Notes: generated by a model from the letters alone, not told the origin. 35,266 bases of DNA from an uncultured Acidobacteriota bacterium (GCA_964423235.1 CAYREJ010000001.1:1-35266), one strand, 5' to 3'. Shown: positions 2,410 to 27,500, counted from the first letter of the stretch. Numbers and translations are program-made.

Positions 2410-3159
2410 TTATCCAGCTAATCTACTCATTTCTTCATCCGGAATATCTAAATTAGTCCATACTTTTTGAACATCATCATGATCATCTAAAGCTTCAACT
2501 AAATTAATAACTTTTTGTGCTTGCTGAGCGTTAAGTTGAATATAAGATTGAGGCAACATCGCTAATTCAGAAGAATGAATAGGAACATTACTTTCTTTAA
2601 GAACATTTAAAATTTTTTCAAAAGATGAGGGAGAACAATATATTTCCCAATATTTATCTTCAGCAGTTATATCGTCAACTCCTAAATCTATCACTAAATT
2701 GAACAACTTTTCCTCATCAATGCTTTCTTTAGGAATTTGAATAAATCCTTTCTTGCTAAACATCCAAGCTACTTCTCCAGCTTTAGCTAAAGTTCCACCA
2801 TGCCGAGAAAATATATGCCTCATTTCTCCCACCGTTCTATTTTTATTATCAGTAAGAGCTTCTACTAAGATCGCAATCCCTCCCGCTGCATAACCTTCAT
2901 ATATAGCTTCTTCTAAATTTGATTCAGCAACCTGCCCAGTTCCTTTTTGTATAGCTCTCTTTATTGTATCCGAAGGCATATTGTTAGCTCTGGCATTCTG
3001 AACAGCCATTCTTAATCTCGGATTTGCTTCAGGGTCTCCGCCACCTTGCTTTGCTGCTACCATTATCTCTTTTATTAATTTTGTATATATTTTCCCTCTT
3101 TTCGCATCCTGTTGAGCTTTTCTATGCTTTATATTAGCCCATTTAGAATGTCCTGACAT
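2410..3159 (-). CDS. yebC: YebC/PmpR family DNA-binding transcriptional regulator
   Basis: 249 aa. Hallmark N-terminus MSGHSKWANIKHRK. AAGAGG SD upstream. Classic yebC-ruvCAB linkage. Confidence 0.93.
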   Translation of the reverse strand: MSGHSKWANIKHRKAQQDAKRGKIYTKLIKEIMVAAKQGGGDPEANPRLRMAVQNARANNMPSDTIKRAIQKGTGQVAESNLEEAIYEGYAAGGIAILVEALTDNKNRTVGEMRHIFSRHGGTLAKAGEVAWMFSKKGFIQIPKESIDEEKLFNLVIDLGVDDITAEDKYWEIYCSPSSFEKILNVLKESNVPIHSSELAMLPQSYIQLNAQQAQKVINLVEALDDHDDVQKVWTNLDIPDEEMSRLAG

Positions 3160-3222
3160 ATTTACCTCTTATTTAAAATTATTTCATTATAAATCATACA
3201 ATTTTTTTTTATAAAAGTAAAG

Positions 3223-3405
3223 GAGTTTATAGAGTTTATAGAGTTGAGAGTTTGTAGAGTTCCACAATTATTACCATCAAGACTTTGCACTCTACCTTAT
3301 TGAAGAAATAAAAGTAAAGAGCTGGTAGAGTTTGTATATTCACTAATTACACTATTATACTTCCTCTGATGATAATAGCTAATAAATAGAGGAACTCTCA
3401 ACTCC
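3223..3405. repeat. Palindromic MITE-like unit 1 (183 bp)
   Basis: Left arm 3223-3263 (gagtttatagagtttatagagttgagagtttgtagagttcc) is inverted relative to right arm 3389-3405 (gaggaactctcaactcc). The first ~70 nt of the interior align with unit 2. Confidence 0.75.
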
Positions 3406-3420
3406 TTAAACTTAAATTTA

Positions 3421-3617
3421 GTTTATAGAGTTGAGAGTTTATAGAGTTCCACAATTATAACCATCAAGACTTTGGATTCTACCTAATGAAGGAAATAAAG
3501 GTAATAATCGAATAAAGTTAAGATTTCCAAAATTATATATGCTCTCACGGTTATAAGGTAATAGATTGAGGAACTCTCAACTCTACAAACTCTATAAACT
3601 CTATACCCAACTCTATA
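3421..3617. repeat. Palindromic MITE-like unit 2 (197 bp)
   Basis: Left arm 3421-3450 (gtttatagagttgagagtttatagagttcc). Right arm 3568-3617 holds five AACTCT words. Its end overlaps the stop codon of the gene at 3613. Confidence 0.75.
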
Positions 3618-4191
3618 AATTCGAAATCGACAAATTACTTAATTCATCTACAAGATGCTTCTTTTTCTCTTCATCTTTCAAAGAATCAAGATTAATAAGA
3701 ACATTTTCTTTAGCACATTTGAAAGCTGCTTTCGCCATATGAATGGCACATTTCCAATCGCTTAAGGCTCCTTGTATCCCCTTTCCTTCTAATTCTTTAG
3801 AAATTTCTATTAATTTGACAGCATACTTTGCATTTTCTAAAGGAATTAATGCAGCTTCATATAATGCTTCTTGAATTTTTATTCTCCTGGTTTCTTTTTC
3901 TTGCTCTGTATCTTTTGGTAATTTATAAGCTGCCATTACCTTGTTAAAAGCTTTTGCGTCTTCATCAATATATGAAGAAACTTTTTTTAATATCTCCTTT
4001 GTTTCTGCAATTATTTTTTGAAATAATTCTTGCTCCTCTTCATTAGCACTCTTTAAACTTATCTTACAAAACATTTGTAAAAGAGCAGCTGACAATGAAT
4101 TTGCTAAACCAGCTACACTTCCACCCCCAGGAGTAGGAAGATCGCTGGCTAAAAGATTCAAAAACTCTTCTAATTTCATTTCTAAGAGCAT
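3613..4191 (-). CDS. Cyclodeaminase/cyclohydrolase family protein (FtcD C-terminal-like, formimidoyl-THF cyclodeaminase)
   Basis: 192 aa, all-helical. LPTPGGGSVAGLANSLSAALLQM matches the FTCD_C signature. 3 nt downstream of hutI. Confidence 0.8.
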   Translation of the reverse strand: MLLEMKLEEFLNLLASDLPTPGGGSVAGLANSLSAALLQMFCKISLKSANEEEQELFQKIIAETKEILKKVSSYIDEDAKAFNKVMAAYKLPKDTEQEKETRRIKIQEALYEAALIPLENAKYAVKLIEISKELEGKGIQGALSDWKCAIHMAKAAFKCAKENVLINLDSLKDEEKKKHLVDELSNLSISNL

Positions 4192-4194
4192 TCT

Positions 4195-5463
4195 CTACCC
4201 CCTAAATGTTTTAATTTCTTTTCCTTTTTTAATTACCTTCCAAGGTTTACATAAGGCAAATTGATAAGCCAAATAAGAATAATCCGGTACATCAAAAATT
4301 AAAATGTCAGCTTGTTTACCCACTTCTATGCTACCTAATTTATTTATTAATCCAATAGAATACGCAGAATTGATTGTAGCTGCATTTATCGCTTCTTCTA
4401 TGCACATACCATAATAATAACAAGCTAAGCCAATAATTATAATCATAGATGGACAAAAAGCTGTTCCCGGATTAAAATCTGTTCCTAAGGCTAAAATGAC
4501 TCCTTTTTCTTTCATCTTTTTAACTGGTGGTGCTTGAGACTTCAAGAAAAAAGATGTCGCCGGAAGAAGCACCGCTGCTACCTTTTCTTCCGCTAACCTA
4601 CTTATTCCTTCCTCAGAAATGTAAAGTAAATGCTCTGCTGATACAGCTTCTAATTCAGCCGCTAACTCCGCACCTCCTGTATATGCTAATTCATCCGCAT
4701 GCATTTTTAGCTTAAACCCATATTCCTTAGCTTTTTTTAATATCCTCTTGCTTTCCTCTATTGAAAAATATCCTTCATCACAAAATACATCACAGAACTC
4801 AGCTAAATTCTCTCTCTTTATATAAGGCAGCATCTTTTCTATTATCAATTCAATATAACCTTCTCTATTATTCTTATATTCTGCCGGAATAGCATGAGCC
4901 CCTAAAAATGTTATTGCTATATCAAGCACCCCCGTTTCCTTTAATCGCTTCACTACTCTAAGAATTTTTATTTCATTTTGAAAATCCAATCCATATCCAC
5001 TTTTTATTTCAATAGTTGTAGTGCCATTTTCAATCATTATGTTTAACCACCTCTCAGCATAATTAACTAAAAAATCTTCCGAAGCTTCTCTCGTCAAGTT
5101 AACTGTCGCCATTATTCCACTTCCCTTTTTCCCAAGCTCTTGATAACTAAATCCAGACATCCTTCTTTTCCAGTCTAATAATCTATCACCAGCAAAAATT
5201 AAATGAGTATGAGCATCTACAAACCCCGGCATAACAGTTTTATTTTCCCCATCTATTATTACAGCATCTTTCCTCACGGCAATATTATTAAATGCATTTT
5301 TACCTACATATAATATTTTGCCATCCCCGCAAGCTAAATCAATTCCCTCTATTAAGCCTATATCATTTAAGCTTTCCTTAATCTTCACGCCACCTCTACA
5401 AGTTATTAGCTGCCTTATATTCTTTATTATTAAATCAGCTTCAACTAACATTTCATCTCTCAT
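4195..5463 (-). CDS. hutI: Imidazolonepropionase
   Basis: Amidohydrolase motifs VDAHTHLIFAG, GAHAIP, KMHADE, GTDFNPG. The track start at 5475 is a TTG. ATG at 5463 or 5451 is more likely, so the start is uncertain. Confidence 0.9.
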   Translation of the reverse strand: MRDEMLVEADLIIKNIRQLITCRGGVKIKESLNDIGLIEGIDLACGDGKILYVGKNAFNNIAVRKDAVIIDGENKTVMPGFVDAHTHLIFAGDRLLDWKRRMSGFSYQELGKKGSGIMATVNLTREASEDFLVNYAERWLNIMIENGTTTIEIKSGYGLDFQNEIKILRVVKRLKETGVLDIAITFLGAHAIPAEYKNNREGYIELIIEKMLPYIKRENLAEFCDVFCDEGYFSIEESKRILKKAKEYGFKLKMHADELAYTGGAELAAELEAVSAEHLLYISEEGISRLAEEKVAAVLLPATSFFLKSQAPPVKKMKEKGVILALGTDFNPGTAFCPSMIIIIGLACYYYGMCIEEAINAATINSAYSIGLINKLGSIEVGKQADILIFDVPDYSYLAYQFALCKPWKVIKKGKEIKTFRG

Positions 5464-5680
5464 CTGATATTTCAATCCTTTTTATTCTGCTATGCAGTCC
5501 TTGAATTATTCTTATGCCTTGCTTCCTTACCTTGAAATACTTCGCTAATATTGATACACATTGTTCATTGGCTTTCCCCTTCTCAGGAGCTTCTGTTAAT
5601 TTTATCTTATAATTACATTCATCTACCTTTACTATCTCAACCTTGGAACTCTTCGGAATTATTTTTACATTTATTATCAC
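5453..5680 (-). CDS. DUF167 (YggU) family protein
   Basis: 75 aa. IKVIPKSSK...LTEAPEKGKANE...RIEI pattern typical of DUF167. GTG start with AAGGGA SD. Confidence 0.75.
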   Translation of the reverse strand: MIINVKIIPKSSKVEIVKVDECNYKIKLTEAPEKGKANEQCVSILAKYFKVRKQGIRIIQGLHSRIKRIEISDER

Positions 5681-5705
5681 TTTCCCTTCAATATAAAAAA
5701 ACAGC

Positions 5706-6188
5706 TTATTTAAAGAAAGTCAGTTTGGCTTCCTTTTCTTCCTCTTCTTTTTGTATAGAGATTAATTGCCTCAACGCCTCAATTTGTGCCAGTATTGATT
5801 CTTGCATATGCTTTTTTCTCATCCTTAATTGAAGTATATCAGCTTGAAGCTTTTGAATTTGCTTTTGTGCAGTTTCATAAACTTTTATGGCTTTTAGCTC
5901 AGCTTCCTTGATTAATAATTTTGATTCTTTTTCTGCATTCTCTCTTAATTGATCACTGGCTCTTTGAGCGGAAACTAAAGTATTTTTTAAGACCTCTTCT
6001 CTTTCCCTATATTCTTCTAATAAATTATTGAGCCTTTCAATTTCCTTTTTCTGTATAGTATTCTCTCTTAATAACTGCTCCATTTGTTCAGCAATAGCAC
6101 TAAGGAAATTTTGAACTTCCTCACGATCATATCCTTTAAAACGCAAAGTGAATTTTTGTCTATTTATGTCAATTGGAGATAGTTTCAT
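5706..6188 (-). CDS. divIVA: DivIVA domain cell-division/polarity protein
   Basis: MKLSPIDINRQKFTLRFKGYDREEVQNFL N-terminal DivIVA motif followed by coiled coil. ATG at 6188 has GGAGG 5 nt upstream; the track start at 6200 is a TTG. Confidence 0.85.
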   Translation of the reverse strand: MKLSPIDINRQKFTLRFKGYDREEVQNFLSAIAEQMEQLLRENTIQKKEIERLNNLLEEYREREEVLKNTLVSAQRASDQLRENAEKESKLLIKEAELKAIKVYETAQKQIQKLQADILQLRMRKKHMQESILAQIEALRQLISIQKEEEEKEAKLTFFK

Positions 6189-6216
6189 AATTGCCTCCAA
6201 TATAATTAAAAATTAT

Positions 6217-6295
6217 AATGCTTTTTATTGTCTTATATTTCCACTATTTTTTCAATATATAATTGTATAATAATCCATCAAAGACAAAAAGCATT
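6217..6295. other. Long-loop inverted repeat between the AP/TPR gene and divIVA
   Basis: aatgctttttattgtctt (6217-6234) pairs with aagacaaaaagcatt (6281-6295). The loop is ~46 nt, too large for a classic terminator. Confidence 0.4.
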
Positions 6296-6342
6296 AAACA
6301 ATCAAAAAAGACAACAGTGAAATTTAGTTATCCGATAGTAAT

Positions 6343-8472
6343 TTAAAACCACTCTGAGGCTTGAGGAGAAATCCCTTTTGATTTTAGCATCTGTATATTA
6401 TCTTTAATTTTATTTTGAAGCCAAGGATTTCCTGCTGGTCTTTTGGAAGCTTCATTCCAACAATATAAACTTTCAGAAAGTTTTCCTTTCCAAGCAAACC
6501 ACTCAGCAGCAAGAACCCAAATCTCAGCATATTCCTTATCTTCAGTCTTTAAATTCCTCAAAAACGCTTCGCACTCATTTATATAAGGAGAATCAATTTT
6601 GCATAATACATTTGCTTTCTCAATTAATAATCTCTGATTCATTACAATTAATTCTTCAGCACTATTTATTGCATTGTAAGCTTCTTGCCAATTTCCTTTA
6701 TCCCTGCTTATAATTGATGTATAAACTAATAAATCACCATCTTCCACATTATTTTCTCTTGCCTCTTTCAAAAGCTGTTCAGCTTTTTTCAAATCTTTTT
6801 GATGAATTGCTAATTGAAATAAGTCCAGATATGCATCTGCATATCTTGGATTTTTCTGCAATGCAATTCGCAACAATTGCTCCCCTTCTTGAATTCTACC
6901 ACGCCTTATATAAAATTCTCCTAAATTAAAATATGGATAATCCATATCCGGAAGTAATTCTTTTATCTTTATTAGATTAGCTTCAGCTTTCTGATATTCT
7001 CCAAAAGATTCATAAAAATTAGCTAAATTCTTTAAAAGCAAAGTATTATAAGGATCAACCAAAATTAACTCTGATAATCTTTCATAAGCTATTTGCCATT
7101 TATGATTTTTTATTAATTCTTCTCCATCTAATAAGGCTTTATAGATATACACCCTATCTCTTGCATCCGGTAGTGAAAAAGCATCTTTAGGCATATTTGA
7201 GCTTACTGAATCAGCATATCCCAAACTTCTTAGTTTTTCTAATTTTTCTAAATCTTGCGCTGTAGGCTTCGGAATAGACATTATTACCCCTTTAAATTTA
7301 TTCAATTCTTTGCTCAATTTTGGAAAAATCCTTTCTTTTTTAACATCCAATTTCTTTTGCATTCTTTCGTCTTTTTGTATATCAAATAACTCATCTTTGG
7401 AACCTCTGATCAAAAGATATGGATAATGTAAGATAGCGATTTGAGGACTCCATCTGAAACTATAATATGGCATAAAAGTAGAGATAAATAATTCATCCAA
7501 GGAAATTCTTGAAGGCAGCAAGGGTTTGCCTTGCATATGCAATTTATCAGACCATAGGTTCAATATTTTTAATATAGTAGGAGCTACATCAATAATAGAG
7601 ACAGGTTCTGATATTGTTATTTTTTGCTTATCCGGTGATAAAATGATAAAAGGAACTCTTATTGTAGAAGTTGTAATAAGGATTCCATGACGCATCTCGT
7701 TAAAATCACCTAAATCTTCTCCATGGTCTCCAACGATAAAGGCATAATCAGAATCGAAGTCCCATTGATGATTATTTTCTAATTCTGTAAACAATCTTTT
7801 AATTTGATCATCAACAAAAGCTAATTCTCCATCATAAGGATTTTTAAATTTATAAAGGTATTTATCAGGAGGAACATAAGGGTCGTGAGGATCATAAAAA
7901 TGAATCCATACAAACCAAGGCTTCTTCCATTGTCTAATGCCTTTTTCAACGCTATCCATAACTTGCGAAGCTGCTCTTTCTCTAAAATCAAAAAACTCCC
8001 TTTTGCCAACTCTAACACTATCTTCATATAAATCAAACCCTGCATCTAATCCATATATCCTATCAAGAACAGCTGAGCTAATATAAGCATAAGTGAAATA
8101 ACCTGCATTTTTCAATCTTTTAGAGATTGTAATTTTATCTTTGCTTAGCTTATAAAGACCATTATTCAAAATTTTATGCTCATTAGACATTAAACCAGTC
8201 AAAATAGAAGCATGAGCTGGAAGCGTCAATGGAGATGAGCTGTAGGCTTTCTTATAAATAATTCCTTTTTCTGTAGCTAACTGGCAAAGATAAGGCATTG
8301 TATTTATGCTGTATCCATAACAGGGAAGATGATCAGCTCTTGTTGTATCTAAAGTGATCAATAAAATATTAGGTAATTTCCTATTCTTGCCTGAAGAAGC
8401 TTCTATAAATTTATCTCCAATAATAGAAAATAAAATTAAAAATAATATAATCGCTTTTCTTCTTATCAACAT
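6343..8472 (-). CDS. Alkaline-phosphatase-superfamily (sulfatase-like) hydrolase/transferase fused to C-terminal TPR repeats, with signal/anchor
   Basis: 709 aa. N-terminal hydrophobic segment, LITLDTTRADHL metal site, TLPAHASILTG in place of the sulfatase CxPxR box, GDHGE. The last ~270 aa are TPR-like. Confidence 0.8.
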   Translation of the reverse strand: MLIRRKAIILFLILFSIIGDKFIEASSGKNRKLPNILLITLDTTRADHLPCYGYSINTMPYLCQLATEKGIIYKKAYSSSPLTLPAHASILTGLMSNEHKILNNGLYKLSKDKITISKRLKNAGYFTYAYISSAVLDRIYGLDAGFDLYEDSVRVGKREFFDFRERAASQVMDSVEKGIRQWKKPWFVWIHFYDPHDPYVPPDKYLYKFKNPYDGELAFVDDQIKRLFTELENNHQWDFDSDYAFIVGDHGEDLGDFNEMRHGILITTSTIRVPFIILSPDKQKITISEPVSIIDVAPTILKILNLWSDKLHMQGKPLLPSRISLDELFISTFMPYYSFRWSPQIAILHYPYLLIRGSKDELFDIQKDERMQKKLDVKKERIFPKLSKELNKFKGVIMSIPKPTAQDLEKLEKLRSLGYADSVSSNMPKDAFSLPDARDRVYIYKALLDGEELIKNHKWQIAYERLSELILVDPYNTLLLKNLANFYESFGEYQKAEANLIKIKELLPDMDYPYFNLGEFYIRRGRIQEGEQLLRIALQKNPRYADAYLDLFQLAIHQKDLKKAEQLLKEARENNVEDGDLLVYTSIISRDKGNWQEAYNAINSAEELIVMNQRLLIEKANVLCKIDSPYINECEAFLRNLKTEDKEYAEIWVLAAEWFAWKGKLSESLYCWNEASKRPAGNPWLQNKIKDNIQMLKSKGISPQASEWF

Positions 8473-23487: not shown

Positions 23488-23516
23488 ATTATATTTTAAG
23501 CATCTCTTAATGTCAA
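23488..23516 (-). promoter_or_regulatory. Consensus sigma70 promoter TTGACA-N17-TATAAT for the MsbA-like gene
   Basis: rc of 23511-23516 is TTGACA and rc of 23488-23493 is TATAAT. Only 13 nt lie between the -10 and the ATG at 23474, with no SD. The IS left end lies 10 nt upstream of the -35. Confidence 0.55.
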
Positions 23517-23525
23517 TTGCTAAAA

Positions 23526-23551
23526 AGGTAACTGGTCAGTTTTCTCCAAAA
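23526..23551. repeat. IS left terminal inverted repeat
   Basis: aggtaactggtcagttttctccaaaa. It abuts the transposase stop codon at 23552. Confidence 0.85.
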
Positions 23552-25006
23552 TTATTTATTTAGGATTATATTTTTAAGATCAGATATAGTAGATAAATTT
23601 TTCATTTTAAGAGTTTGAAATACACTCATATTAACTGCATGGATATAAGATCCTTTATTACTTCGAGAACCACCAGATATTTTTCTTGATACTACGATAG
23701 GACGTAATGTTCTTTCAGCAAGATTATTTGTTAAAGGAACATTTTCATAAAGCAATGCAGTTAATAAATTAACATTTTGCTTATCTATTCTTTTCTGAAT
23801 CCTTTTAGCATCTTTATATTTATAGCTATAATTTATAATATCATTAATTGCCTGAATAAATTGATTATAGTAATCAATTCTTTCCTCTTTATCAAAAGGT
23901 TTTTTGATAATCTCTGATAATTTTGAATACATATCTTTAAGCATTGCGTATAGCTTTATCACTTCATCTGAGGCAGATTCCCTTTCTGCTTCTTCTCTGC
24001 ATGCTCTTAGTAAATGAGCCCAGCAACTTTGATGCTTCATTTTAATATTTCTATAAGCATAATAGTCATCCCTGACAATTACAAAATCCTCTGGCGAACC
24101 CCTATAAAAATTATGAGGTATGGCTTTTCCTCTACTGTTTGTAATCATATAGTAAACTGCTTTAGGAATAGAAAAAGACCATACCCAACAATTATTGCCA
24201 TTTATCCTCCAGCTTGTTTCATCTGCACAACTATAAACCGATGATTTTATCTCTTCCTTTATCTTTTCATAATAAGAACCTAACCATTTGCTTGCTTTAT
24301 GTAATAAATTAACTACGCCAGCTTTACTTACTTTTAATCCAAAAAGTATTTTTATAGATTCAACAATCGAATCTAAAGATGATCTCATGCCATATCTTAA
24401 ATTCATTACATAAAGTAATGTATTTATGCCAAGCCTGCTTTTAGGTATTACTTCAGAAGGGATACCCACAACCTCCTTTTTGCATTTACTACACCACTGC
24501 CTCATTATCTTATATAATATAACTTTATATCGCAAATATTCAAATGAAGGAATGTCCTCCACTATATGCTCATAATATGAATTATTAAGACTAAGCAAAT
24601 TATCGCAAAATGGACAACGTCTAATAAATACTTCCTTGTACTCATCTATTTTTTCAGGCTTCTTACGCCCACTCCCTTTATGACCCTTCTTTGCCCCTAC
24701 CTTCTTGCTCTCAATAACTTCTTTAGGTACTTCCCCTTCCTTTGTCTCAGCCTTCTTACTCTTTTTGCTTCTTTTGAATATGATGCTATTGTACCTATCT
24801 ATCGTTGATCTAAGTTTTTCTATAGTCTCCTTTAATTCACTATTTTCCTTTTTTAATCTCCTTATTTCTTTATTTTGTTCCTTTACCCTCTTAATAAGGC
24901 TTTCTATCTTATTATTCTTTTTATTTAAACTATTCTTTAATGATTTAATATGAATTACTAACTTCCTTTTTTCTTCATCACTACTACGCCATTTTAAATT
25001 AATCAT
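23552..25006 (-). CDS. IS66 family DDE transposase (TnpC-type)
   Basis: 484 aa. N-terminal leucine-zipper coiled coil, zinc-finger CPFCDN...CSKCKK, ADETSWRINGNNCWVW, HQSCWAHLLR, TNNLAERTLRPIVVSRKISGGSRS. Confidence 0.88.
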   Translation of the reverse strand: MINLKWRSSDEEKRKLVIHIKSLKNSLNKKNNKIESLIKRVKEQNKEIRRLKKENSELKETIEKLRSTIDRYNSIIFKRSKKSKKAETKEGEVPKEVIESKKVGAKKGHKGSGRKKPEKIDEYKEVFIRRCPFCDNLLSLNNSYYEHIVEDIPSFEYLRYKVILYKIMRQWCSKCKKEVVGIPSEVIPKSRLGINTLLYVMNLRYGMRSSLDSIVESIKILFGLKVSKAGVVNLLHKASKWLGSYYEKIKEEIKSSVYSCADETSWRINGNNCWVWSFSIPKAVYYMITNSRGKAIPHNFYRGSPEDFVIVRDDYYAYRNIKMKHQSCWAHLLRACREEAERESASDEVIKLYAMLKDMYSKLSEIIKKPFDKEERIDYYNQFIQAINDIINYSYKYKDAKRIQKRIDKQNVNLLTALLYENVPLTNNLAERTLRPIVVSRKISGGSRSNKGSYIHAVNMSVFQTLKMKNLSTISDLKNIILNK

Positions 25007-25934
25007 TTAATAATCTCTCCCTTGCTTTCTTTATTAAAGGATATACATAAACATCCTTCTGTATCCCATGATAAAAATAATTCATCCCGCTCCTTCCTTT
25101 CCCCTTTGTCCTTCCTAAATATATCCAATTAGCTGCTTTATAACTTGTCCCAGAAAATCTATCTACTTCTACAAAAGTTTCTATTAGCATAGGCTCATAT
25201 CCATAATATGCACCCCAATCTTGTCTTATCCTTCTTGATATAGATGCCAATATCTTAGATGATAAATACTTTACCTTTACCCAAGGTAATATCAAATATC
25301 TACTATTATTTATTATTAAATGTAAATTCTTCTTCCTTCTTTCTGCATCCCATCCTATCCATTTATCCCTTATATTTAAATGCAATACAGCATCTGAAAA
25401 TCCTATGCATGCTACTAATTTATCATCCAAATAAATTAAATACTTTATGTAATGCCCTACTAATACCTTATATCCTTTGTAATGATAATTATAAATTAAA
25501 TAATCCCATAACCCTTCTTTATCTTTTCCTCTTGCTATCTCAAATCTTATTTCCTTGAATTGCCCTGCCTTGCCTGTAATCTCTTCCTTAACAATATCAA
25601 ATTTAATCTGATCCCTTAATGCTCCTCCTTTATTCTTCTGCCTCCTTTTTAATCTTATAGGAGGACAATATATTAATCCAGCTTTATGCATCCTTAATAA
25701 TACATCCCTACAGGCTCTGTCTTTTAATACACCATTTGCTTGCCTCCAATTTAAAAGCTTACATATCAGCTTGGATTGAAAAGTCCTACTGCTATCCCCA
25801 TAATCTTTTAAAACATTCTTTATAATCTCTATATCTTCTTGACTGAATTCCTTTCCTCTAAATATGTATTTTTTATTGCATTCATTGTTTTTATCATTCA
25901 TATATATAGTATAATGATTTTGCTTAGCGTGCAC
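24999..25934 (-). CDS. DUF4338-like (DruA-like) protein encoded as the first gene of the IS
   Basis: Segment HYKGYKVLVGHYIKYLIYLDDKLVACIGFSDAVLHLNIRDKWIGWDAERRKKNLHLIINNSRYLILPWV...LIETFVEVDRFSGTSYKAANWIYLGRTKGKGRSG matches my recollection of the DUF4338 consensus. GTG at 25934 or ATG at 25901. Its stop overlaps the tnp ATG (ATGATTAA). Confidence 0.7.
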   Translation of the reverse strand: MHAKQNHYTIYMNDKNNECNKKYIFRGKEFSQEDIEIIKNVLKDYGDSSRTFQSKLICKLLNWRQANGVLKDRACRDVLLRMHKAGLIYCPPIRLKRRQKNKGGALRDQIKFDIVKEEITGKAGQFKEIRFEIARGKDKEGLWDYLIYNYHYKGYKVLVGHYIKYLIYLDDKLVACIGFSDAVLHLNIRDKWIGWDAERRKKNLHLIINNSRYLILPWVKVKYLSSKILASISRRIRQDWGAYYGYEPMLIETFVEVDRFSGTSYKAANWIYLGRTKGKGRSGMNYFYHGIQKDVYVYPLIKKARERLLND

Positions 25935-26034
25935 AAGGGGTTTTTCATATATTTTAAAAAAAATTTTTGCTCTAAGATCTTTTTGCCTTGCTAAACTACT
26001 TCTTATTTGAATAAAAAACCTTTATTTACCTTAG

Positions 26035-26060
26035 TTTTGGAGAAAACTGACCAGTTACCT
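26035..26060. repeat. IS right terminal inverted repeat
   Basis: ttttggagaaaactgaccagttacct, the exact reverse complement of 23526-23551. Confidence 0.85.
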
Positions 26061-26070
26061 AAAATATCTA

Positions 26071-26100
26071 TTGACAATAATTTTTAGGTTATGATACTAT
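26071..26100 (+). promoter_or_regulatory. Candidate outward-facing promoter next to the IS right end (TTGACA-N18-TACTAT with a TGn extension)
   Basis: TTGACA 26071-26076, TG at 26092-26093, TACTAT 26095-26100. It faces the DUF559 remnant. Confidence 0.3.
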
Positions 26101-26105
26101 ATTTT

Positions 26106-26415
26106 ATGATTTTCGAAAAACTAAACTATTAAATTTTTCTTGGAGCGAAATTTAGAAGGCAAGTGCCTCTTGCTAAGTATGTGTTAGATTTTTATTATGC
26201 AAAAGCGAAACTAAATTTAGAGCTTGATGGAGGTCAATATTGCCTAAATACAGGACGATAAAATGATATAGAACTAGACCAGAACTTACGACAGTTTGGA
26301 ACAGAAGTTTTAAGATTTTCTGATAGAGAATTTTCAATTGATTTTTGATATGGTTCAGAAAAGATTGGAGGAAGAGACCTAATCTTGCCCTTCTCCTAAA
26401 AGGAGAAGGAAAGAT
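26106..26415 (+). pseudogene. Decayed DUF559 (Vsr-like endonuclease domain) gene
   Basis: Frame from 26139 reads LGAKFRRQVPLAKYVLDFYYAKAKLNLELDGGQY...(TAA 26259)...LRQFGTEVLRFSDREFSIDF(TGA 26346)...LILPFS(TAA)KEKE. DUF559 core motifs are present, but the N-terminus is truncated and there are at least 3 in-frame stops. Confidence 0.7.
26389..26409 (+). terminator. Perfect 9-bp stem / 3-nt loop hairpin at the end of the DUF559 remnant
   Basis: ccttctcct aaa aggagaagg. No strong T-tract follows, so terminator function is uncertain. Confidence 0.3.
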
Positions 26416-26677
26416 ATTTTAAAAGTAGTTTTGCATATGATATTTGATAGAATTAATAAATATAAAAGAGTTGCGTAATGATAAGATTAAGAAAAAAGGG
26501 ATTATCGGACAGCGTCATTGGGTTGGCGGTAGGGGAAATAATGAAGCGTTTGGGGATGGTTTTTCTGGAACGGCTAATTCGCGAAATTTCTTTGCGGCTA
26601 GGCTGTGCTTTACAGTTGCACCAAATAAAACCCCTTTCATTTGCTGGTGCTTATTTTATCGTCACAATAAAGGAGCT

Positions 26678-27454
26678 ATGCTAAAGTCTATAGAGCAGGT
26701 AACCCAGCATATTTCCGTAAAGGATCTTAGGGAGTACATCATTAAGCATGGTTGTTATAGTCCCGAAGAGAACCAGAGAATTTTTGAGAAATGGTTTGCA
26801 GGAGCGCCTAGATACCTGTTTAGAGCGATCCACAGAAAATATAAAATTGCAGACCAAGTCATTTGCGACATCGGCTGTTCCTACGGCATGAACTTGGTAT
26901 TTTGTAAGAAGGGGTCTTACGGTCTTGAAACAGATGATTATTGTGTTAAATTTGCTCATAGTTTAGGTCTGAGTGTCTACCAACGTGATGTTCTTGGAGA
27001 CGACCTATCGGACCTTCCAAAGGTAGATGTTATATGGTGTTCTGCGGTTTTAGAGCATGTGGAGTCGCCTCATATTCTCCTTAGAAAAATGCATGGTTTG
27101 CTGAAGGATGAGGGGTTAGTGGCGGTTTATGTTCCCACTATTCCAATCCTGCCCTCCTTGCGGAGGCTTCCCAGGATTGGTCGCTACTTTGGTGGTCATC
27201 TTGCAGCTGACCATATTAACTTCTTTGTACCTCAGACGCTTCGGTTGACCTGCGAACGCGCAGGATTCCGGACGGTGGAGCTATCGCCTTTTTATCCTAG
27301 CATACTGGGATTAATGAATCATATACCTGTACTGCAGCGGGTAGTAGATGGCATAGTTTATATAGGGAGAAAGGTGGCAGGATGGGATTATCCGGAGAAA
27401 GCATGGAGGATGGTGGCGAACAATAAATTAGGTTTTATAAAAAGGACACAGTAA
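26678..27454 (+). CDS. Class I SAM-dependent methyltransferase (GC-richer, probably horizontally acquired)
   Basis: Motif I ICDIGCSYGMN. VDVIWCSAVLEHVESPHILLRKMHGLLKDEGLVAVYVP. ATG at 26678 follows AAAGGAG. The upstream 78 codons of the track ORF start at a TTG and look non-protein-like. Confidence 0.8.
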   Translation: MLKSIEQVTQHISVKDLREYIIKHGCYSPEENQRIFEKWFAGAPRYLFRAIHRKYKIADQVICDIGCSYGMNLVFCKKGSYGLETDDYCVKFAHSLGLSVYQRDVLGDDLSDLPKVDVIWCSAVLEHVESPHILLRKMHGLLKDEGLVAVYVPTIPILPSLRRLPRIGRYFGGHLAADHINFFVPQTLRLTCERAGFRTVELSPFYPSILGLMNHIPVLQRVVDGIVYIGRKVAGWDYPEKAWRMVANNKLGFIKRTQ

Positions 27455-27500
27455 AGTGGTCGTACAGTTGCTTTAGCCTAAGCACAATGCGATTATGAGC

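Follow-up and report, generated by a model that had tools for sequence, protein, structure and literature searches.

An IS66-family insertion sequence with a translationally coupled DruA-like gene, and promoter-proximal MITEs sharing its termini

Within the window, the whole 35,266 nt stretch of DNA analysed here, positions 23528-26058 are occupied by an intact two-gene insertion sequence of the IS66 family, 2,531 bp long and with its genes on the minus strand. Elements of this family have terminal inverted repeats of about 20-30 bp starting 5'-GTAA, and generate 8 bp target site duplications (TSDs). A search for inverted repeats identified arms at 23526-23554 and 26032-26060, 29 nt long and 97% complementary, in which the first 26 nt pair perfectly. 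These were rejected as the ends of the element, since homology with a related contig (L119, 87% nucleotide identity) stops precisely at 23527, and the outer AG/CT pair is therefore flanking sequence. The left terminal inverted repeat, on the side of the transposase gene, spans 23528-23554 and the right, on the side of the druA-like gene, 26032-26058; both of these 27 nt arms start GTAACTGGTCAG, giving GTAAC...GTTAC ends that satisfy the IS66-type 5'-GTAA criterion. The initial annotation had described an IS66-like element, a 2,535 bp unit bounded by perfect 26 bp inverted repeats of the GTAA type: the repeat pair and the matches to IS66 models support the nature of the element and of its ends, and the first 26 nt are indeed perfect, whereas the element proper is shorter, at 2,531 bp. 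Putative copies of an 8 bp target duplication are found at 23520-23527 (CTAAAAAG) and 26059-26066 (CTAAAATA), although these are imperfect, being identical at 6/8 positions. At the place of the insertion sequence, L119, a 93%-identical msbA contig, has a different repeat. When thirty relatives were searched with the DNA of the IS, no empty site came to light; the sole match, the diverged sequence G001, lacks the element termini.

Two ORFs, both on the minus strand, and no others occupy the unit: one of 311 aa when read from a GTG (24999-25934) and one of 484 aa (23552-25006). The latter encodes an IS66-family DDE transposase, composed of an N-terminal coiled coil, a Cys-rich zinc-finger region and a DDE domain (residues 191-452), which matches both Pfam DDE_Tnp_IS66 (PF03050; E 2.2e-38, 132.7 bits against a cut-off of 23.1) and NCBIfam transpos_IS66 (NF033517; 223.2 bits against a cut-off of 180). 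The stop codon of the druA-like gene and the start of the transposase gene overlap in the 8 nt sequence ATGATTAA (24999-25006, minus strand), indicative of translational coupling. The same overlapping arrangement, druA-like then IS66, was observed in L013, L014, L017, L102-L106 and L120-L126, with the overlap of stop and start recorded in L013, L014, L017, L104, L120 and L123.

In the canonical IS66 group, accessory genes tnpA and tnpB lie upstream of tnpC, while the ISBst12-type organisation of the ISfinder classification consists of a transposase without either. The element does not meet the canonical gene set, there being no tnpA or tnpB in the unit and no match to TnpB_IS66 (PF05717) in the whole of the 94%-complete genome. 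It is like ISBst12-type elements in its DDE transposase, GTAA-type inverted repeats, 8 bp target duplication and lack of tnpA and tnpB, but differs in adding a second, translationally coupled DruA/DUF4338 gene and, on the evidence given below, in inserting with sharp specificity at 11 nt upstream of -35 hexamers and in having given rise to a very large population of miniature elements (MITEs). Both the presence of an accessory gene in place of tnpA and tnpB and its coupling to the transposase had been proposed in the initial annotation, and both stand. Related elements elsewhere carry the two genes every time, and the transposase-only layout, which would have made the first gene a captured fragment, was not met; elsewhere in this genome, the same inverted repeats enclose MITEs without genes.

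The 311 aa ORF matches the Pfam DruA family (PF14236) through residues 109-281, which align with profile positions 30-222 of 297 (E 1.5e-43; 149.5 bits, cut-off 27), in agreement with its earlier assignment as a DUF4338 (DruA-like) protein. The reading frame is open from GTG 25934; however, judging from an alignment in which homologues begin at ATG 25901, this is probably the true start, corresponding to a 300 aa protein encoded by 24999-25901 on the minus strand. Six nt upstream of this ATG is an internal promoter-like site, TTGTGC-N17-TATACT (25908-25936, minus strand), recognised by consensus match only, and GTG 25934 falls inside its -35 hexamer.

The family to which this protein belongs is very large and widespread. 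PF14236 matches 10,989 clusters at 50% identity (E<=1e-3); a search of 90% clusters gave 1,181 matches, typically on IS-sized contigs, and 228 loci were found in species genomes from many phyla, archaea included. An alignment of 30 family members has 56 invariant columns, and conservation is higher than that of the partner transposases. Downstream of 51 DruA-like loci, the neighbouring genes included transposases of the IS66 (14), ISKra4 (12), IS5 (1) and IS110 (1) families, and when ten long matches were scanned for single-chain fusions, the domain was found joined to IS4 (five), IS66 (three) and IS630 (one) transposases. Some loci instead adjoin genes that are not transposases, encoding kinases, ORC/CDC6-like proteins or helicases. 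No paper was found on the pairing of a DUF4338/DruA-like protein with IS transposases.

Homologues are named 'Druantia anti-phage system protein DruA' by NCBI, and the PF14236 domain is indeed common to this protein and the DruA of type I Druantia. However, the protein is about 300 aa long, whereas the PADLOC DruA models have 400-675 positions and match it weakly over about 90 residues (33 bits for PDLC00002, confined to residues 160-246; E 0.006 for PDLC00001); no full-length match to these models was obtained. Again unlike type I DruA, it has none of the partner genes druB-druE nearby, the neighbours being the IS66 transposase, msbA and a methyltransferase, and it belongs to a family that is adjacent or fused to transposases, other than at the loci with different neighbours. 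The sole MZB/DUF1998 match in the genome is a 772 aa frame on a separate contig, C68.

In an AF2 model of the DruA-like protein (pLDDT 85), a small helical domain at the N terminus precedes a GNAT fold at the C terminus. The first and second ranked Foldseek matches were both phage Mu Mom (8bv8; E 8e-8 and 4e-6), with generic GNATs following from 1.5e-5. Mom is a GNAT-fold protein (PDB 8bv8) responsible for a Gly-tRNA-dependent modification of adenine in double-stranded DNA, the established role of which is to shield the DNA from restriction, and in which residues H58, Y59, R111, S124, D149, R151 and Y159 are functionally important (PMC13219725). The Pfam Mom family (PF25680) was matched by 27/30 family members at E<=1, the best at 2e-8, although the protein in the window itself had no such match at this threshold; the family profile did not match any PDB sequence at E<=1. 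In a weak hhalign alignment (E 0.09), Mom H58/Y59, S124 and Y159 correspond to the family-invariant H151/Y152, S226 and Y265, and D149 to a conserved acidic position, D/E256 (E256 in the window protein), whilst R111 and R151 lack clear counterparts. Mom is the best structural match for the C-terminal domain, several of its important residues align, if weakly, with invariant residues of the DruA-like family, and the carrier in both cases is a DDE transposon; however, the sequence similarity is marginal, the DruA-like protein has an extra N-terminal domain, and its gene is coupled to the transposase, whereas mom is a late phage gene. Modelled separately (pLDDT 86), the N-terminal domain had no significant fold match in the PDB (best E 0.8), neither to a DNA-binding fold nor otherwise, and no likeness to sigma region 4, so that describing it as 'DNA-binding' would be a guess.

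Only one intact copy of the element is present in the assembly, a 2.57 Mb, 31% GC genome from an uncultured, deep-branching organism, while its terminal ~24 nt recur hundreds of times as the ends of MITEs. Across the whole genome, 265 termini match the element ends with four mismatches or fewer, and 360 with five or fewer. These include 57 paired MITEs, mostly 200-330 bp long, and suffice as ends for at least 130 copies. The MITEs form several families that are internally unrelated but have the one ~24 nt terminus in common; next to the left inverted repeat of the IS, the subterminal sequence matches the 'TTATT' class of MITE ends out to about 47 nt. Perfect 8 bp TSDs flank 16/54 MITEs, and 27/54 have TSDs with two mismatches or fewer, against 0.55 expected. 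Short, non-coding and with the terminal repeats and TSD length of the IS, these repeats satisfy the criteria for cognate MITEs. They are like other bacterial MITEs moved in trans by a cognate IS in their termini, TSD length and 200-330 bp size, but are set apart from bacterial MITEs generally by a copy number unusually high for a 2.6 Mb genome, by promoter-specific placement and by the grouping of several unrelated families under one terminus. A scan of metagenomes for the terminus TGGTCAGTTTTCTCCAAAA returned 11 chance matches only, all without the GTAAC context. Neither the MITE family nor promoter-targeted insertion featured in the initial annotation.

The element itself lies between two promoters. 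On the left, the promoter of an msbA-like gene, TTGACA-N17-TATAAT (23488-23516, minus strand), matches the consensus at 12/12 positions, is conserved in L119 and has precisely 11 nt between its -35 hexamer and the end of the IS; on the right, TTGACA-N18-TACTAT (26071-26100, plus strand) has 12 nt between its -35 hexamer and the opposite end, and lies within a repeat of ~70 nt (26061-26131). Reading outward from the termini across the genome, a position-specific signal is evident, with TTG at +12-14 and TAnAAT at +35-40. TTGACA (at most one mismatch) is found at offset 11 from 55/257 termini, as against 0-6 at other offsets and a control rate of 0.5%, and a full promoter-like site at 67/257, against a control rate of 0.4%. 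A -10 box is present at 75% of TTG-ends, compared with 16% of TTGACA sequences genome-wide. All 80 promoter-type flanks are different in sequence, and 86% of them are followed within 30-200 nt by a co-directional ORF, versus 47% of other ends. The 11 nt between element end and the -35 hexamer of the sigma-70-type promoter correspond to the 8 bp duplication plus 3 nt, and the promoter may be on either side. That the -35 and -10 boxes might be parts of the element was ruled out, as they are outside the 8 bp duplications and the 80 flanks all differ. Selection against insertions within genes could inflate the co-occurrence of -10 boxes, so the data do not establish that a promoter bound by RNA polymerase, rather than the -35 sequence, is what is recognised.

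Another repeat family in this genome, which looks unrelated and contains AACTC/GAGTT words, is also enriched beside -35 boxes (65/349); agents other than the IS66 transposase may aid promoter-proximal placement.

The same geometry recurs in full-length relatives from other metagenomes. In each of L102, L120 (with L121), L122 and L123, a -35-like hexamer lies precisely 11 nt out, with a -10 at 17-18 nt, and the TSDs of these elements include a perfect one in L120 (TTCTCTTG) and one of 7/8 in L102. The transposases of these relatives are 47-51% identical to that of the window (the broken transposase of L102 being left out). By contrast, the geometry is absent from L013, L018, L031, L033, L103, L106, L125 and L126, non-targeting relatives in which the DruA-like proteins are 50-58% identical but the transposases only 24-30% identical.

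To our knowledge, IS66-family elements have been described as lacking marked target specificity, and no paper was found on promoter targeting by them. Fixed-distance insertion upstream of sigma-A/sigma-70 promoters is a behaviour of the TnGBS/ISLre2/ISKra4-group Mutator-like elements (Brochet 2009; Guerillot 2014, PMC3942029), with the ISKra4 group, for which a promoter on either side and near-perfect inverted repeats have been reported, representing one of only two bacterial lineages known to target promoters (Guerillot 2014, PMC3942029). The likeness, which extends to the use of either side, is one of behaviour only: the transposase here is an unrelated IS66 protein and not p-MULT (3/4), targeting by it cannot depend on the conserved motif that has been proposed for p-MULT, and the spacing is 11 nt (8 bp TSD plus 3) rather than the published 13-17 nt (PMC3942029). 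The ISKra4 model NF033572 has no match anywhere in this genome.

Taking these observations together, the best joint explanation is that the IS66 transposase of this clade both moves the MITEs and targets promoters, and that the DruA-like protein is an accessory enzyme rather than an anti-phage protein; we consider this somewhat more likely than not. Under this hypothesis, the transposase would mobilise the MITEs in trans and would itself carry the targeting determinant, which is placed there because the 11 nt geometry varies with the clade of the transposase rather than with the DruA-like protein; it might contact promoter-bound RNA polymerase or sigma factor, or else read the -35 region. Translational coupling would supply the DruA-like protein in fixed proportion to the transposase, allowing it to work in the transposition complex, possibly tethered by its N-terminal helical domain. 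Its activity, substrate and donor can only be inferred, the most likely being those of a Mom-type transferase that moves an acyl or aminoacyl group onto DNA or a protein of the complex. Since the MITEs transpose without a druA-like gene in cis, the protein must either act in trans or be dispensable.

The initial annotation had left open whether the DruA-like protein was a cofactor of transposition or a minimal mobile defence passenger. A role as a selfish or beneficial passenger without any part in transposition, providing either Mom-type anti-restriction or a stripped-down Druantia-like defence, would accord with the established protective function of Mom (PMC13219725), with membership of the DruA family of type I Druantia and the NCBI naming of homologues, with the mobility of MITEs that lack the gene, and with the loci adjoining kinase, ORC/CDC6-like and helicase genes. 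We nevertheless think it unlikely: the stop/start overlap with the transposase gene is kept in many elements, fusions join the domain to transposases of three families, it is associated with no fewer than four other IS families or contexts, and the protein is more conserved than the transposases, while the weak and partial PADLOC match and the absence of druB-E genes disfavour the defence option in particular. The association with IS66 and ISKra4 neighbours and the fusions to IS4, IS66 and IS630 favour the cofactor option, and the gene product is most likely an enzyme that assists transposition rather than an anti-phage protein.

The link between transposase and MITEs rests only on shared termini and TSD length, with no experiment behind it, and the single intact IS copy has a TSD of its own that matches at 6/8 positions. 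It could be that the MITEs were moved by another, unassembled transposase that happens to have these termini, with the IS in the window an inactive bystander. Indeed, 107/720 contig ends break inside these repeats, hence further elements may be missing from the assembly, and contig C326 has another IS66, broken, whose ends are related. This seems improbable given that both ORFs of the IS are intact, that its left subterminal 47 nt match the largest class of MITE ends, and that full-length relatives have the same target geometry; moreover, with GTAA ends, 8 bp TSDs and no ISKra4 in the genome, any such element would still be an IS66 relative.

A little more doubtful again is the proposal that the DruA-like protein, and not the transposase, is the promoter-targeting subunit, bringing the transpososome to promoters by recognising either RNA polymerase bound there or the -35 region. 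Its separate N-terminal helical domain might suit such a function, and the gene accompanies both the promoter-targeting IS66 clade and ISKra4-family transposases, the latter association being one that this proposal would explain, as the ISKra4 group is a known promoter-targeting lineage (Guerillot 2014, PMC3942029). However, the non-targeting relatives combine DruA-like proteins 50-58% identical to that of the window with divergent transposases, five DruA-ISKra4 loci (L060, L068, L075, L077 and L093) have no obvious promoters, and the N-terminal domain has no significant DNA-binding fold match. Nor does TnGBS need a DruA-like gene for targeting (PMC3942029); the part of the Guerillot 2014 supplement (PMC3942029) available to us indicates that the promoter-targeting ISAcce1 is only about 1.3 kb, a transposase alone, and in that part DUF4338 is not named for the promoter-targeting ISKra4 elements. 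Finally, it is most improbable that promoter proximity merely reflects the survival of random insertions in upstream intergenic DNA, for although in-gene insertions would be purged from a compact genome and the AACTC/GAGTT repeats are promoter-proximal too, selection could not produce a peak sharp to a single nucleotide, in register with the 8 bp TSD and at the same offset in four independent full-length elements from other samples.

Returning to targeting by the transposase with a DruA-like accessory enzyme, a broader extrapolation is possible, which we put forward as tentative and do not expect to hold in full: that DruA/DUF4338 proteins are a general, hitherto undescribed class of transposase partners, serving at least six unrelated IS families through Mom-type chemical marking of the DNA or of a transpososome component, that the DruA of Druantia has been domesticated from among them, and that this IS66 clade homes to sigma-70 promoters.

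What is new here is the MITE population, the 11 nt promoter geometry, its occurrence in four relatives and its link to the transposase clade. That a conserved protein with an enzyme fold is linked, by coupling or by fusion, to the transposases of IS66, ISKra4, IS4, IS630 and others suggests that transposition includes a step not yet studied, and the pipeline label 'Druantia anti-phage system protein DruA' is probably misleading for these IS genes. For the biochemistry of Druantia DruA itself, Mom-like acyl or aminoacyl transfer becomes a testable hypothesis, with H151, Y152, S226, E256 and Y265 as candidate catalytic residues. Promoter-targeted transposition, described earlier only for TnGBS/ISLre2/ISKra4-type Mutator-like elements, extends here to the unrelated IS66 family, with a different geometry that is sharp to a single nucleotide, and, if the broader extrapolation is true, would represent the first such system outside the Mutator-like transposases; with at least 80 natural insertion sites in one genome, its mechanism becomes tractable. 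The flanks of the MITEs also provide, at no cost, a promoter map of experimental grade for an uncultured and deep-branching organism with a 31% GC genome.

The element consists of two minus-strand ORFs that occupy the whole unit, the first encoding the DruA-like protein (24999-25934; 311 aa as an open frame) and the second the transposase (23552-25006; 484 aa); the overlap read as translational coupling in the initial annotation is present in their coordinates, being 8 nt long (ATGATTAA). The inverted repeats originally described are confirmed: their 29-nt arms (23526-23554 and 26032-26060) show 97% complementarity, without a mismatch in the first 26 nt. The 2,535-bp unit of 23526-26060 did not stand, however, because the alignment with L119, a contig from a close relative (93% aa identity in MsbA; 87% nt identity), stops at 23527. 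Hence the IS itself is 23528-26058 (GTAAC...GTTAC), the outer AG/CT belonging to the flanks. The 8-bp duplication of this copy is imperfect (CTAAAAAG versus CTAAAATA). The 311 aa previously given for the upstream ORF hold for the open frame, but the protein is probably 300 aa, a prediction based on homologues beginning at Met12 and on a promoter-like site, TTGTGC-N17-TATACT, 6 nt upstream of the ATG at 25901.

Profile searches bore out the proposed gene identities: the upstream ORF matches Pfam DruA (DUF4338; PF14236) with an E value of 1.5e-43, and the downstream ORF matches Pfam DDE_Tnp_IS66 (E 2.2e-38) and scores 223 bits against NCBIfam transpos_IS66, the cut-off of which is 180. A search of the genome detected no IS66 TnpB, in agreement with the absence of tnpB first reported, and no ISKra4-type transposase. 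The unit is an intact member of the IS66 family and carries a coupled gene of the DruA family.

The assembly (360 contigs, 2.57 Mb, 31% GC) has one copy of the IS. Its terminal sequence of around 24 nt (GTAACTGGTCAGTTTTCTCCAAAA) has 265 occurrences when four mismatches are allowed and 360 when five are. These occurrences are the ends of non-coding elements, 200-330 bp in length, which fall into several families that differ internally; 57 pairs of ends are fully assembled, and 107 of the 720 contig ends break inside such MITEs. An 8-bp target duplication is a hallmark of IS66 elements. The 8 bp flanking these MITEs agree fully in 16 of 54 pairs and differ at no more than two positions in 27, where mismatched pairs give an expectation of 0.55. 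The largest MITE end class also matches the left subterminal region of the IS over about 47 nt. On sequence evidence alone, it is likely that this cognate population is mobilised in trans by the IS transposase. Elsewhere in the genome, a 163-nt IS fragment (contig C102, 7964-8126; 97% identity), spans the 3' end of the druA-like gene and the 5' end of the transposase gene and is joined to a MITE end; it appears to be what is left of a second copy that was deleted. A diverged IS66 transposase gene (contig C326, 92-1076; 32% identity), contains one in-frame TAG and runs off the end of its contig; its right terminus (TTTTGGAAAAACTTTCCTATTAC) is related, and no druA-like gene is visible.

When the sequence is read outward from each terminus, with offsets counted from the element end, positions 12-14 are TTG and positions 35-40 TAnAAT. 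TTGACA, allowing one mismatch, lies at offset 11 in 55 of 257 termini, compared to 0-6 at every other offset and a rate of 0.5% at random genome positions; a full site (-35, 16-18 nt spacer, -10) is found at this offset in 67 termini, versus 0.4% of controls. Where TTG occupies this position (83 ends), a -10 box follows in 75%, against 16% of all genomic TTGACA hexamers. The 80 such flanks for which 300 nt were available are all different sequences, and 86% of them have a co-directional ORF within 30-200 nt (others having tRNA genes), as opposed to 47% of the remaining ends. Since the hexamer lies outside the duplication, the rule is an 8-bp duplication, 3 nt and then the -35 box, and as both end classes face promoters there is no rule of orientation. 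There is little doubt, in our judgement, that this promoter targeting is mechanistic. The data do not discriminate between the -35 sequence and promoter-bound RNA polymerase as the target, because the purging of intragenic insertions would also enrich for -10 boxes.

The IS itself conforms to this rule at both ends, being separated by 11 nt from the perfect TTGACA-N17-TATAAT promoter of msbA on one side, and by 12 nt from a TTGACA-N18-TACTAT promoter on the other. Its four closest relatives with usable flanks, all from other metagenomes (L102, L120, L122 and L123; L121 was counted with L120 owing to their common left flank), encode DruA-like proteins 62-66% identical to that studied here. In each of the four, a distance of exactly 11 nt separates an element end from a -35-like hexamer, and a -10 box follows at 17-18 nt; the target duplication is perfect in L120 and matches at 7 of 8 positions in L102. 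This geometry is absent from the more distant elements L018, L022, L031, L033, L103, L106, L125 and L126, whilst L013 and L014 have TTGACA and TTGAAT, respectively, at 10 nt. The transposases of the targeting relatives L120, L122 and L123 are 47-51% identical to that of the IS (the broken one of L102 was left out), whereas those of non-targeting relatives are only 24-30% identical, despite DruA-like identities of 50-58% (L103, L106, L013, L018 and L125). As the split follows the transposase, the determinant should lie in that protein, or in the pair, rather than in the DruA-like protein alone; on balance, we place it in the transposase clade. Judged from these sequences, the far better conservation of the DruA-like protein suggests either stronger constraint upon it or partner exchange between elements. 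L103 (JGI Ga0207193_1019554, 2416-7297) is an IS nest, in which two different DruA-IS66 elements stand in tandem beside an ISAzo13-type transposase.

Insertion at a fixed distance upstream of sigma-A promoters is known from the Mutator-like transposases of TnGBS, the ISLre2 family and the ISKra4 group. The spacing there is 13-17 bp, and elements whose inverted repeats are near-perfect have promoters on both sides; four ISKra4 elements carry extra genes of unknown function (PMC3942029). By contrast, the IS described here uses an unrelated IS66 transposase, and the spacing in its clade is 11 nt.

The right flank of the IS (26061-26131) is itself a repeat of around 70 nt, present in six or seven copies of 91-94% identity (others being at C344:65-135, C102:8217-8282, where it follows the 163-nt IS fragment, C98:344-414, C301:1915-1985, C354:3-55 and C64:11075-11106). 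It comprises TTGACA-N18-TAtTAT and then ATGATTTTGGAAAAACTAAACTATTAC, a segment that both resembles a degenerate IS or MITE terminus and begins a short frame (MILEKLNYY..., cut down to MIFEKLNY* in the copy beside the IS). Four of the copies have a MITE or IS end 11-25 nt upstream of the -35 box, and the one in C301, bordered by CAGGAT repeats, is within a methyltransferase-like gene. The repeat may be a mobile promoter cassette or else the conserved 5' end of a family of paralogous genes. A second family, of AACTC/GAGTT words (3223-3617 and genome-wide), is likewise enriched beside -35 boxes and may share the promoter-proximal habit: 65 of the 349 runs have TTGACA, with up to one mismatch, 3-12 nt past their last word, and in L119 (1400-1546) one of these repeats adjoins the same msbA promoter, with about 10 nt between it and the -35 box. 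Directly right of the IS (26140-27500), the translation suggests a short remnant resembling the C terminus of a DUF559-type endonuclease; beyond it is a class I methyltransferase gene (26444-27454) of markedly higher GC content. The IS looks to be located at the edge of acquired DNA.

The DruA-like protein has 1,181 matches among 90%-identity clusters (50-66% identity, about 290-300 aa), most of them lying on element-sized contigs (2.4-3.5 kb). When a profile was run against 1.84 billion cluster representatives, 10,989 matched at E≤1e-3, with 6,071 remaining at E≤1e-10, and contigs from one genome per species yielded 228 loci, distributed across KSB1, Ignavibacteria, Nitrospirota, Desulfobacterota, Planctomycetota, Bacteroidota, Chloroflexota, Firmicutes, Spirochaetota, Alpha- and Gammaproteobacteria and methanogenic archaea. 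The two-gene layout recurs in other genomes, as the initial annotation had anticipated: every closer relative opened has the druA-like gene followed by the IS66 transposase gene, most with an overlap of a few bases (L013, L014, L017, L104, L120 and L123), whilst L102 and L122 have a broken transposase gene or two genes that only adjoin. Some lineages have the reverse order (L085-L091, from a Paracoccaceae MAG), as do the IS66 fusions P0260 and P0275, with the transposase N-terminal and the DruA-like part C-terminal. Amongst 51 loci with a downstream gene scorable by NCBIfam, the neighbour is IS66 in 14, ISKra4 in 12, IS5 in one and IS110 in one. Long family members are fusions to transposases: of ten scanned, five join the DruA-like domain to an IS4, three to an IS66 and one to an IS630 transposase. 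We found no paper describing an association between DruA/DUF4338 and transposases.

An AlphaFold2 model of the DruA-like protein, built with the family alignment, was confident (pLDDT 85) and has a Mom-like fold, its best PDB match being Mom of phage Mu (8bv8, E 8e-8), with ordinary GNAT acetyltransferases ranking lower. DUF4338 has been termed a GNAT-like acetyltransferase domain in passing (PMC10853773); Mom is a GNAT that modifies adenine in double-stranded DNA using Gly-tRNA, for which H58, Y59, R111, S124, D149, R151 and Y159 are important (PMC13219725). The Pfam Mom family is matched at E≤1 by 27 of 30 family members (best 2e-8), though not by the protein encoded here. In a weak profile alignment (E 0.09; published numbering is that of the Mu record plus 10), Mom H58/Y59, S124, D149 and Y159 correspond to H151/Y152, S226, E256 and Y265; the histidine, serine and both tyrosines are invariant in the DruA-like family, an alignment of 30 sequences having 56 invariant columns, and position 256 is conserved as acidic. 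Mom is the closest match in fold, but the sequence alignment is weak, a limit on the evidence, as is the IS being a single, imperfectly duplicated copy. The N-terminal 80 residues form a confidently predicted small domain of a beta-hairpin and three helices, with no significant match among known structures (best E 0.8, to winged-helix or Myb-like folds). A Mom-like catalytic activity on DNA is no more than a tentative possibility, lacking experimental support.

PADLOC DruA models match the protein only weakly and partially. Druantia partner genes are absent, and a DUF1998/MZB protein occurs just once in the genome, as a 772-aa frame on a different contig. We lean towards the DruA-like protein being an accessory to transposition rather than a defence passenger, again without experimental evidence. 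The NCBI pipeline labels the IS-borne homologues P0025 and P0052 'Druantia anti-phage system protein DruA', a name that, given their context, is probably misleading. Such misnaming of IS-borne DruA-like proteins could inflate counts of defence genes.
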